This document shows, piece by piece, positions 12,001 through 15,000 of a stretch of DNA of 38,725 nucleotides (its first letter is position 1; each line of letters begins with the position of its first letter). Made by a program: the position numbers. The DNA lies in IMG/VR virus record IMGVR_UViG_646311924_000013. One strand, written 5' to 3'. This DNA is from a virus (taxonomy: Duplodnaviria > Heunggongvirae > Uroviricota > Caudoviricetes).

Positions 12001-15000
12001 ACCAGATGGAAAAAATCACAACAGGTGTGTCATACACCACGTCAGCGGTGGGAACGGGCTACTGGTTCCTGCAGTTGCTGGACAGGGTTTCCCCGTCTCA
12101 GTGGGCGGCAATAGGCGTGCTGGGGAGTCTGCTGTTTGGTCTGCTGACGTACCTGACGAACCTGTATTTCAAAATCAGAGAGGACAGGCGTAAGGCGGCA
12201 CGGGGAGAGTAGGTGATGAACCATGAAGAAATGAATCAGCGCTTCAGTCGTCTGGAAAATGAAATTGCTGAACTGAATAAAAAACTGTCGGCGCTGATGC
12301 CTTCTGAAGATGAAAAAAAACGCCGCGATGAGCAGTTTGCTGCGTTTGACGATTATTGTCGGAAAGTGATGAGCAGAAATCTCGCAGAGTGTTTCAGTAT
12401 TCATAATGATAATTGCAGTGAGCTGGAATGGGTGAACCGCCCCGGAAATCCTGGAGACTAAACTCCCTGAGAAAGAGGTAAACAGGATGACTAAAAATAC
12501 TCGTTTTTCCCCCGAAGTCCGTCAGCGGGCGATTCGTATGGTTCTGGAAAGTCAGGATGAATATGACTCACAGTGGGCGGCAATTTGTTCCATTGCCCCA
12601 AAGATTGGCTGTACGCCGGAGACTCTGCGTGTCTGGGTTCGCCAGCATGAGCGGGATACCGGGGGCGGTGATGGTGGGCTCACCAGCGCTGAACGTCAGC
12701 GTCTGAAAGAGCTGGAACGTGAAAATCGTGAACTGCGCCGCAGTAACGATATCCTTCGCCAGGCTTCCGCTTATTTTGCGAAGGCGGAGTTCGACCGCCT
12801 CTGGAAAAAATGATGCCACTGCTGGATAAGCTGCGTGAGCAGTACGGGGTCGGACCGGTATGCAGCGAACTGCATATTGCCCCGTCAACGTATTACCATT
12901 GTCAGCAACAGCGACATCATCCGGATAAACGCAGTGCCCGTGCGCAGCACGACGACTGGCTGAAGAGAGAGATACAGCGCGTATACGATGAAAATCATCA
13001 GGTGTACGGTGTGCGTAAAGTCTGGCGTCAGTTGTTACGGGAAGGAATCAGGGTGGCCAGATGTACAGTGGCACGTCTCATGGCGGTTATGGGACTTGCC
13101 GGTGTTCTCCGGGGTAAAAAGGTCCGTACGACCATCAGCCGGAAAGCCGTTGCCGCAGGCGACCGCGTAAACCGTCAGTTCGTGGCAGAACGACCTGACC
13201 AGCTGTGGGTGGCTGATTTTACTTACGTCAGCACATGGCAGGGCTTCGTCTATGTGGCGTTTATCATTGATGTGTTTGCCGGATACATCGTGGGGTGGCG
13301 GGTCTCATCGTCTATGGAAACGACATTCGTGCTGGATGCGCTGGAGCAGGCGTTGTGGGCCCGTCGTCCGTCTGGCACCATCCATCACAGCGATAAAGGC
13401 TCTCAGTATGTGTCACTGGCCTATACGGAGCGACTAAAAGAAGCCGGATTACTGGCATCAACAGGGAGTACAGGCGACTCGTATGACAACGCGATGGCTG
13501 AGAGCATCAATGGTCTTTACAAAGCGGAGGTAATACACCGTAAGAGCTGGAAAAACCGTGCAGAAGTGGAACTGGCCACACTAACGTGGGTGGACTGGTA
13601 TAACAATCGACGATTGCTGGGAAGGCTGGGCCATACTCCTCCGGCAGAAGCAGAAAAAGCTTATTATGCTTCCATCGGAAACGATGATCTGGCAGCCTGA
13701 GTTCACAGATAAAACACTCTCCAGGAAACCCGGGGCGGTTCAGGGAGTGTAACCGGCCATCCTTTGTTGTATCCGGTGATGACGGGAAAATCACCATATC
13801 AGAAAATGGAAAAGTAACACTGCCATCGCACCAGCACAGTGAGACGCTCATTGAATTTGCCATTGATTACCTGAAGAACAATAAAAAACAGGGGCTGATG
13901 CAGCGCATTGGTCGTTGCATGGGGTATCTGCAGGTAGCCGCTGAGATTGAAGCGCTGGCCAGTGGTGCTGATAAGGATGCAATTGTGCGGGAGGCTCTTC
14001 TTCGTAATTTTAATACTCCACCCTTTAAAAAAGTGCCGGCTTACTGGCTTCATCCCGGACTGACTTATCTGAAAGTGCGTATTTAGTGGGCCTGGGACAG
14101 CGGCTGAATATTTAATATATCCATGAACGCAAAAATCAGATACGGCCTGTCGGCTGCCGTTCTGGCGCTGATTGGTGCAGGGGCGTCTGCGCCTGAAATC
14201 CTCGACCAGTTTCTGGATGAAAAGGAAGGTAACCACACCACGGCATACCGTGATGGTGCGGGTATCTGGACCATCTGCCGTGGAGCCACCCGGGTGGATG
14301 GTAAGCCTGTTATTCCTGGCATGAAGCTGTCGAAGGGGAAATGCGACCGGGTTAACGCCATTGAGCGTGATAAGGCGCTGGCATGGGTGGAGAAAAACAT
14401 CAAAGTGCCACTGACTGAACCCCAGAAAGCGGGGATCGCGTCATTCTGCCCGTATAACATTGGCCCCGGTAAGTGTTTCCCGTCGACGTTTTATAAACGA
14501 ATTAATGCAGGCGATCGCAGGGGAGCGTGTGAAGCGATTCGCTGGTGGATTAAGGACGGAGGCAGAGACTGCCGTATCCGCTCAAATAATTGCTATGGTC
14601 AGGTATCCCGTCGTGACCAGGAGAGCGCGCTGGCGTGCTGGGGTATCGACAGATAAGCAGAATATTTTGCTGAAAAATGACGTTGGCCAACGCGGACGGA
14701 TAACACGAAATCCTGCGAACTGGCAAAACCTGAGTGAATAAAAGTAAAAACCCCGTTTGTTAGCAGCAGGTGGGGTTTTGTGTTTCCTGACTCCGGAAAA
14801 GTCAAAGGAGAAAGTGTGTTTGATTTTAGCAAACTGATTCGGGAGATTCGAGTGATGGCTGAAAAATTATCCACCTGGAAGTTCATTCTTATCTGGCTGG
14901 TGTTTGTGATTATGGCCTCCGGTTATTTCATCGGTCAGATACGCTGGTGGTGAAATGAACCGCGTACTGTGCGTGGTCATCATTGCCCTGCTGGTGGCCT

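Follow-up and report, generated by a model that had tools for sequence, protein, structure and literature searches.

The DNA considered here is a 38,725-nucleotide stretch (the window; IMG/VR virus record IMGVR_UViG_646311924_000013) of a lambdoid prophage that is integrated at ompW in Escherichia coli O111, and its subject is a complete copy of the insertion sequence (IS) IS629 that lies in the lysis cassette of the prophage and splits a gene between those for the holin (S) and the endolysin (R). In window coordinates, the element, the two gene fragments and the genes of the cassette are arranged as follows.

11997..12212, plus strand: class II holin of the phage 21 S-type, bearing the dual-start motif Met1/Met4 (PF04971, E=2e-32; RefSeq WP_001072901.1 at the equivalent position, named 'class II holin family protein').
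12216..12432, plus strand: 5' fragment of the disrupted 185-residue gene, codons 1–72 plus 1 nt (RefSeq pseudogene 'missing C-terminus', strain 110512).
12430..12432, no strand: left copy of the 3-bp target-site duplication, GGG (junctions recomputed).
12433..13742, plus strand: complete 1310-bp IS629 of the IS3 family, 100% identical to IS629 copies in annotated records (ends and inverted repeats recomputed).
12487..12813, plus strand: IS629 orfA, helix-turn-helix N-terminal part of the transposase (PF01527, HTH_Tnp_1, E=2.4e-12).
12768..12884, plus strand: ALIL frameshift-stimulating pseudoknot over the orfA/orfB overlap (Rfam RF01497, 121.5 bits, gathering score 50).
12810..13700, plus strand: IS629 orfB, DDE/rve catalytic part (PF00665, E=9e-28; PF13276, E=4e-18).
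13743..13745, no strand: right copy of the target-site duplication, GGG (junctions recomputed).
13746..14086, plus strand: 3' fragment of the disrupted gene, comprising codons 74–185 with the stop, preceded by the last 2 bases of codon 73 (RefSeq pseudogene 'missing N-terminus').
14123..14656, plus strand: endolysin of the T4-lysozyme type, open reading frame (ORF) intact (PF00959, E=3e-24).
14955..15422, plus strand: Rz spanin subunit (PF03245, E=3.6e-50).
15175..15360, plus strand: embedded +1-frame ORF with the lipobox LVVSAC, likely Rz1 (from reading of the sequence only).

A simple IS629 insertion splits one gene

The sequence-only reading of this DNA had proposed a simple insertion of IS629 with a GGG target duplication, and recomputation of the junctions bears this out, with GGG on both sides of the IS versus a single GGG at empty sites. 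The segment 12433..13742 is 100% identical over ~1310 nt to records marked 'insertion sequence:IS629', for example AJ304858 and AP012534 (Stx phage records), and its ends, TGAACCGCCCCGG... on the left and ...CCGGGGCGGTTCA on the right, form 25-bp imperfect inverted repeats in which 22 of the 25 positions match. Identity over its length, a size of 1310 bp with repeats of ~25 bp (5'-TG...CA-3'), an orfA/orfB overlap carrying a -1 frameshift signal and the target duplication all place the element in IS629, for which duplications of 3–4 bp have been reported (Rump et al. 2011, PMC3271280). RefSeq labels the transposase at the locus 'programmed frameshift', and the copy in the lysis cassette is intact and apparently active. 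The transposase is co-oriented with the phage late operon, and one weak terminator-like hairpin is the only such structure on the plus strand inside the IS.

When 12216..12432 and 13746..14086 are joined, a single frame of 558 nt results, encoding 185 residues from the ATG at 12216 (186 from a GTG at 12213); the restored frame described earlier was thus recovered on recomputation, at a length of 185 and not about 187 residues. Removal of the IS with one GGG is the sole clean restoration, since keeping both copies adds one Gly and removing both creates a stop codon. The ORF starts 4 nt past the holin stop with a GGAG-like motif upstream, and in its present state the 5' fragment continues for 9 codons into IS629 to a stop at 12461.

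Five complete E. coli genomes contain, contiguous and at 100% identity, the 988-bp empty site that was constructed in silico (3' part of the holin gene, ORF and 5' part of the lysozyme gene), and 668 of 5,426 genomes have 80% or more of it; an O157 prophage carries an allele that is 99% identical. In one genome, NZ_CP027307, the uninterrupted ORF is annotated as the 185-residue protein WP_001015158.1, with a class II holin on one side and a lysozyme on the other; the surrounding 13 kb is 99.86–99.98% identical to the window, and the prophage is the same one at the same chromosomal place, other IS629 copy included. Because the exact empty site exists uninterrupted in real genomes, the rejoined ORF is not a chance ORF: one genuine gene is split by IS629. 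The proposal of a single gene interrupted between pinholin and endolysin genes is therefore sustained by its flanks (PF04971 and PF00959), by the intact allele and by the contiguity of the two parts in related prophages.

Distribution of the insertion and excision scars in O111

A 600-bp probe for the left junction matched 31 complete genomes at 100% identity and a probe for the right junction matched 30 at 99.3% or more. All serotype-named carriers are O111 (H8, NM, H- or H2), and carriers were isolated in the USA and Japan, their sources being humans, cattle, flies, a crow and creek water. In RefSeq the locus already appears as a transposase of the IS3 family with a pseudogene fragment on each side, and the insertion as such is ordinary and publicly annotated.

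The IS is absent from six complete O111 genomes and one draft assembly (loci L012–L017), where 2–4 bp are missing from the allele in comparison with the intact gene. Apart from columns 215–226, the insertion point (window equivalent 12425..13760), the scar alleles agree with the intact allele over all 558 nt. They read as follows.

Intact allele, GGAATGGGAGTGTAACCGGCCATCC: strains 2015C-3108, UTAK-22, UTAK-8, 08-4377 and 7-27 20A; length change 0.
Scar, GGAATGGGTGTAACC: UTAK-13; −2.
Scar, GGAATGGGGGTAACC: GCA_025389255 (draft); −2.
Scar, GGAATGAGTGTAACC: SD134209 and 2009C-3675; −2.
Scar, GGAATGGGTGAACCGGCCATCC: 7-16 37A; −3, in frame.
Scar, GGAATGGGTGAACCGCCATCC: OkiPb01689; −4.

In strain 2010C-3053 the span is also 2 bp shorter, as judged by length with the sequence itself unread. 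The junction sequences among the IS-free alleles are GGGAGTG, GGGTGTAACC, GGGTGAACCGG, GGGTGAACCGCC and GAATGAGTG, and an identical scar occurs in the independent assemblies L014 and L015. The scars of 7-16 37A and OkiPb01689 keep the left tip of IS629, TGAACC(GCC), joined to the target, so that L016 and L017 read GGG-TGAACCGG/TGAACCGCC-ATCC. Each of these tip-retaining scars equals one deletion from the IS-bearing allele, running from the IS tip to a similar target sequence, TGTAACCGGCC, with 3–5 nt of microhomology; overall, microhomology at the scar junctions is 1–5 nt. The target sequence TGTAACCGGCC is positioned 5 bp beyond the right end of the IS and resembles the left tip TGAACCGCC, and this resemblance explains the microhomology used in the scars.

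Across 13 kb of flanking DNA in eight genomes (IS-bearing, intact and scarred) only scattered and mostly private single-nucleotide polymorphisms (SNPs) were found, with at most 3 private SNPs between IS-bearing and IS-free genomes. Strains 2015C-3108 (intact) and OkiPb01689 (scarred) have three SNPs in common, a signal too thin to decide polarity, and precise excision may also have produced the perfectly intact O111 alleles. Since different scars lie exactly at the IS site while the flanks are nearly invariant, the alleles indicate that IS629 was probably present in the ancestors of the scarred strains and was then lost in at least four or five independent events. The earlier description of the insertion as recent is accordingly right in that the insertion is young, by its few private SNPs, and needs correction in that it is common to 30–31 complete genomes and older than several independent excisions.

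The IS-excision enhancer IEE, which is present in O111:H8, acts by microhomology-mediated end-joining (MMEJ); besides simple excisions it produces deletions beside the IS whose sizes start at a few nucleotides (Calvo et al. 2023, PMC9943667), and simple excision by IEE restores genes (PMC9397093). The natural O111 alleles resemble such IEE/MMEJ products, with either the IS and one duplication copy removed or small deletions at 1–5 nt of microhomology, and five scar alleles with microhomology junctions fall at the exact site. The outcomes are the same as those of IEE-promoted excision of IS629 and other IS3-family elements (Kusumoto 2011, as cited; PMC9943667; PMC9397093), here seen in natural alleles only. 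From the alignment of the alleles, the scars appear consistent with repeated microhomology-mediated, IEE-like excision.

The disrupted protein

Searches with the reconstructed 185-residue protein returned 165 matches among 5.8 billion proteins, every source-named one from E. coli, and these fall into two classes: stand-alone proteins of 185–221 residues, and proteins of 285–296 residues named 'YdfR family' or 'DUF1327 domain-containing'. In the long forms the query aligns behind an N-terminal DUF1327 domain, at 81–91% identity over 98% of its length (one 296-residue form matches at 75%), and it corresponds, at 83–91% identity, to residues ~105–296, the C-terminal two-thirds, of YdfR-family proteins of 287–296 residues. 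DUF1327 (PF07041) itself is absent from the 185-residue protein in a Pfam search at E<=0.1, and YdfR of E. coli K-12 (103 residues) consists of DUF1327 only. Matches among PHROG families were to those of 'unknown function', with PHROG 1085 matched over profile positions 117–296 of 296. A sequence search of the PDB gave coiled-coil noise only, the best hit being occludin (E=0.0027), and was set aside.

Among 1.84 billion cluster representatives, only 43 members of the C-terminal domain family were recovered by profile search. The remote relatives (~25–36% identity) retain the C-terminal ~110 residues, most of them together with a DUF1327-like N-terminus, and have the motif (K/Q)xxGR(C/S)MGxLQxAAEIEA ... 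(D/N)xPPxK..P..W..PG..YL. In the disrupted protein this conserved domain spans residues ~75–185 (window 13746..14086) and reads GRCMGYLQVAAEIEA ... PPFKK.P..W..PGLTYLK, with the core GRCMGxLQVAAEIEA ... PPFK..P..W..PG..YLK. AlphaFold2 (AF2) modeling from a shallow, E. coli-only alignment was poor (pLDDT 55), and a rerun with distant homologues gave a mean pLDDT of 81.5, with the C-terminal domain at ~78–96; in the predicted structure a helical hairpin at the N-terminus precedes a small alpha/beta domain.

By these alignments the disrupted gene is the stand-alone C-terminal module of the YdfR family and lacks the DUF1327 domain. Its product is concluded to be a cytoplasmic, accessory late protein, and a real one, because the C-terminal domain is conserved out to relatives of ~25–36% identity and is modeled confidently. 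K-12 YdfR, which is DUF1327 alone, binds RNase E's catalytic domain through residues 1–72 and may bind RNA (PMC13232886); this interaction, the sole experimental clue, belongs to the partner domain and is not transferable to the 185-residue protein, since the DUF1327 domain is absent there. A best guess, of low confidence, is that the protein is a host-modulating 'moron' that acts with or like YdfR proteins and is not a lysis component.

The holin–endolysin slot and consequences for lysis

The sequence-only reading had called the position of the gene unusual, which does not hold: YdfR-family/DUF1327 genes routinely fill this slot in E. coli lambdoid prophages, as in essQ–ydfR–rrrQ of K-12 Qin, and the 185-residue gene occupies the same slot as that gene and as the YdfR-family genes of Stx and other lambdoid phages. 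The slot gene of Stx2 phage 86 is annotated 'YdfR family protein' and that of PhiR phages 'DUF1327/DUF1823 containing protein', and in a Qin-like prophage the order is again essQ, a YdfR-family gene and rrrQ. With class II holin and lysozyme genes of a lambdoid prophage on its two sides, the disrupted gene has the location of the YdfR family. In the cassette of Stx2a phage PA45 (KP682389) S is followed directly by R without a slot gene. The slot between holin and lysozyme is a variable cargo site in phage-21-type cassettes. Because many cassettes lack the gene and others carry different modules in its place, it is probably dispensable for the pinholin/SAR-endolysin/spanin mechanism of lysis.

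The endolysin has a hydrophobic, Gly/Ala-rich N-terminus resembling a signal-anchor-release (SAR) sequence (LSAAVLALIGAGASA, read from the translation by eye), and its protein, WP_000992150.1, is identical between IS-bearing and IS-free strains. The S, R and Rz ORFs are likewise all intact and their proteins the same with or without the IS; the Shine-Dalgarno sequence before R is weak and not obvious. In lambdoid phages late transcription is antiterminated by Q, and the Q-modified polymerase passes terminators. Since the IS is co-oriented, has no strong terminator, leaves S, R and Rz/Rz1 intact and sits in a defective prophage, the insertion would be expected to cost the accessory protein and to bring at most a modest change in R/Rz expression. 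The lysis defect suggested earlier is for the same reasons (S, R and Rz intact, prophage already defective) unlikely to matter, and any lysis phenotype would be visible only with the late operon activated in trans, because the early region of the prophage is gone.

The host prophage

The host prophage adjoins a truncated ompW and is a lambdoid, non-Stx, defective remnant. It is defective because a second IS629 abuts a truncated gene without a target duplication, the early region is missing, the minor tail protein gpL is frameshifted and a remnant of IS1 is present. The full second copy (L002 1489..2798) has the flanks ...GTTAC on the left and CAGGCAGG (CAGGC right) on the right, with no direct repeat; it adjoins a 5'-truncated DUF1627 gene whose N-terminus RefSeq gives as missing, and the one gene that separates it from chromosomal yciI is a small recombinase gene. 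Since only that gene separates the IS from the chromosome, the immunity, replication and early regions were apparently deleted next to the second IS629. No stx genes were found between Q and nanS-p of the window prophage. Further features are these.

1..930, plus strand: 3' 930 bp of the second IS629, cut by the window edge, matching the lysis-cassette copy at 930/930 positions and co-oriented with it.
3910..4472, minus strand: RefSeq RelE/ParE–ParD type II toxin–antitoxin pair (equivalent L002 5778..6340), upstream of DUF968/RusA/Q genes.
6321..7142: Q.
8822..8881: weak partial tRNA (Rfam, 37.3 bits), RefSeq tRNA-Met.
8967..9159, plus strand: STnc100 (Rfam, 144.5 bits).
9161..9222, minus strand: anti-GcvB small RNA AgvB (Rfam, 96.5 bits).
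9370..11316: nanS-p.
28383..29080: minor tail protein L (gpL) in two overlapping ORFs of 115 and 130 residues, 'frameshifted' in RefSeq in strain 110512.
36.7–37.3 kb (approximate): IS1 remnant.
37587..38177: OspG-family (NleH-like) effector kinase gene.

The segment 8822..9222, between a DNA methyltransferase gene and nanS-p, is the position that stx has in Stx phages; ARAGORN found no tRNA upstream of nanS-p, contrary to the RefSeq tRNA-Met. At the right end of the prophage (~36700..38180, coordinates transferred from L011) a frameshifted IS1 transposase, the effector kinase gene, transposase remnants and the truncated ompW follow in that order.

Recurrent insertions and target choice

The holin–endolysin slot is a recurrent landing place of IS629. 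In O111:NM 08-4377 and 7 other genomes, eight in all, which have no IS at the window's site and match the junction probe at 95.7% identity, a separate IS629 (L003 4258..5567) lies in a paralogous gene of another prophage, 2 bp upstream of the equivalent site, with an ATG duplication and in the same orientation. In strain 2013C-4974 (L004 4289..5598) a 95.7%-identical IS629 variant is found 11–13 bp upstream of the site in another paralogue, also co-oriented, followed by a rearrangement to gpJ. More IS629-type insertions occur in S–R slot genes (L008/L009 and L010) and in R of PA45, all co-oriented with the operon. The PA45 insertion is in the same orientation within a phage-21-type cassette, with a 3-bp duplication, ATG; there an essential lysozyme gene is split, whereas in the window prophage only an accessory gene is.

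In strain 13E0725, within a Qin-like prophage, and in the unrelated strain 2013C-3277, an IS629-type element stands at the same site of a long YdfR-family gene with a CTG duplication (L008 and L009, 3672..4981), the copies being 99.2% and 95.5% identical to the IS of the window; the pattern suggests IS-to-IS gene conversion or two hits on the same nucleotide. Apparent same-site insertions in H127–H130 proved to be at different sequences inside long YdfR-family genes.

The junction probes could detect insertions only within about ±120 bp, and under uniform targeting over that range two further insertions within 13 bp have a rough p of ~0.01; the clustering is suggestive of a local hot spot. Targeting was further considered in 117 unique IS629 right flanks (IMG/VR loci L019–L138). 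IS911-style end-targeting through the inverted repeat-like target TGTAACCGGCC was rejected, as motifs like the tip of the left inverted repeat were not enriched in the 117 flanks relative to control windows, a result that agrees with the finding of no sequence hot spot for IS629 by Rump et al. (PMC3271280). A weak bias was seen in the same sites: 56% have G at +5 from the IS end, two bases beyond the 3-bp duplication, whereas at +4 G is depleted (only 9%). A stronger proposal is that the ~13-bp stretch around codons 70–73, with three independent, co-oriented insertions in paralogous prophage genes, is a true IS629 hot spot which together with IEE excision, both precise and imprecise, forms a recurrent on/off and eventually scarred-off switch. 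This is rather unlikely; if true, the switch would control a late-operon accessory protein that elsewhere is fused to the RNase E-binding YdfR domain, across prophages of enterohaemorrhagic E. coli (EHEC).

Weighing the explanations

The account held to be highly probable is that of a single IS629 insertion in a dispensable slot gene of a defective O111 ompW prophage, with little effect on lysis and with later microhomology excisions. IS629, as an IS3-family element transposing by copy-out/paste-in, would have inserted once into codon 73 of the late-operon accessory gene with duplication of GGG; the gene is knocked out, leaving a 72-residue N-terminal stub with 9 IS-encoded residues and a C-terminal domain that is untranslated or orphaned. 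The insertion presumably arose inside the O111 clone and was kept in most sequenced members; elsewhere in O111 the IS would have been removed precisely or near-precisely by microhomology-mediated joining, as described for IEE-promoted excision of IS629. Some observations weigh against parts of this account. For the five intact O111 alleles, the SNPs in the 13-kb flanks are too few to tell an ancestral state from precise excision. With the weak Shine-Dalgarno sequence of R, translation of R may benefit from translation of the upstream ORF, and the IS could then lower endolysin output. The database search suggested for the reconstructed protein gave homology to the C-terminal part of YdfR-family proteins and no family assignment: Pfam yielded no family (a Relaxase_C match was sub-threshold only), NCBIfam and PADLOC searches nothing meaningful, and the protein model no fold match in the PDB or BFVD.

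Among other readings, it is conceivable, if unlikely, that the insertion is a selected domestication, in which 1.3 kb placed between S and R and the loss of upstream ORF translation reduce endolysin and spanin and so protect the O111 host from lysis trans-activated by co-resident lambdoid prophages. Recurrence of IS629 or close variants in lysis regions, always co-oriented (in R of PA45 and in the slot genes of L003, L004, L008/L009 and L010), the lack of an obvious Shine-Dalgarno sequence for R and the retention of the IS in most sequenced O111 genomes with the prophage are in its favor. Yet the S, R and Rz ORFs are intact and identical with or without the IS, the IS contains no strong terminator and the Q-modified polymerase would ignore one, the early region is already gone, and the IS has been lost repeatedly at no evident cost; moreover, ~62% of IS629 copies lie in prophages generally (PMC3271280), and the recurrence may reflect no more than neutral tolerance. 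That the length variants are ordinary mutations or sequencing errors at a G-run, the empty site being ancestral in IS-free strains, is very unlikely. The site does hold GGG, and some assemblies have frameshift errors (UTAK-13 has other frameshifted genes in the region), but the IS tip in L016 and L017 needs one deletion from the IS allele versus two or three indels from the intact allele, five variants fall inside 12 bp against scattered singleton SNPs over the other ~13 kb, and one scar is found in two independent assemblies (L014 and L015).

A very recent, strain-private insertion would fit the perfect 3-bp duplication, the identity of the IS copy to the other copy in the prophage and the near-identity of the flanks to empty-site strains, but it is highly improbable: the junctions recur unchanged in 30–31 complete genomes of varied sources in the USA and Japan, and from the one insertion at least four or five different excision scars descend. 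Hardly any credence attaches to a composite transposon made of the two co-oriented copies, by which the Q–nanS-p–holin segment of 11.5 kb would have been moved in one piece: identical direct copies do bracket window 931..12432, but GGG is duplicated around the downstream copy itself, and the DNA between the copies is collinear with the late region of ordinary lambdoid phages, an order also kept in strains without the IS. This reading was rejected on the lack of a shared duplication at the outer flanks (…GTTAC on the left and GGGAGTG… on the right).

Meaning of the insertion and its scars

IS629 insertions in EHEC prophages are known from O157 Sakai and EDL933 (Rump et al. 2011, PMC3271280, and Ooka et al. 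2009 cited there), with the same element, 3–4-bp duplications and prophage location; the present case differs in its O111 lineage, its ompW prophage and its natural series of excision scars, and this site was not found described in the literature searched. As such, the finding is one more IS629 copy inactivating an accessory gene of a decayed EHEC prophage, and it matters little. The allelic series, with IS-bearing, restored and at least four or five scarred forms in near-identical prophages, is a field record of IS629 excision, a process so far studied mostly in the laboratory, and could act as a fine-scale marker inside O111. The disrupted protein, in turn, defines a narrow C-terminal module of the YdfR family, whose partner domain has recently been tied to RNase E.

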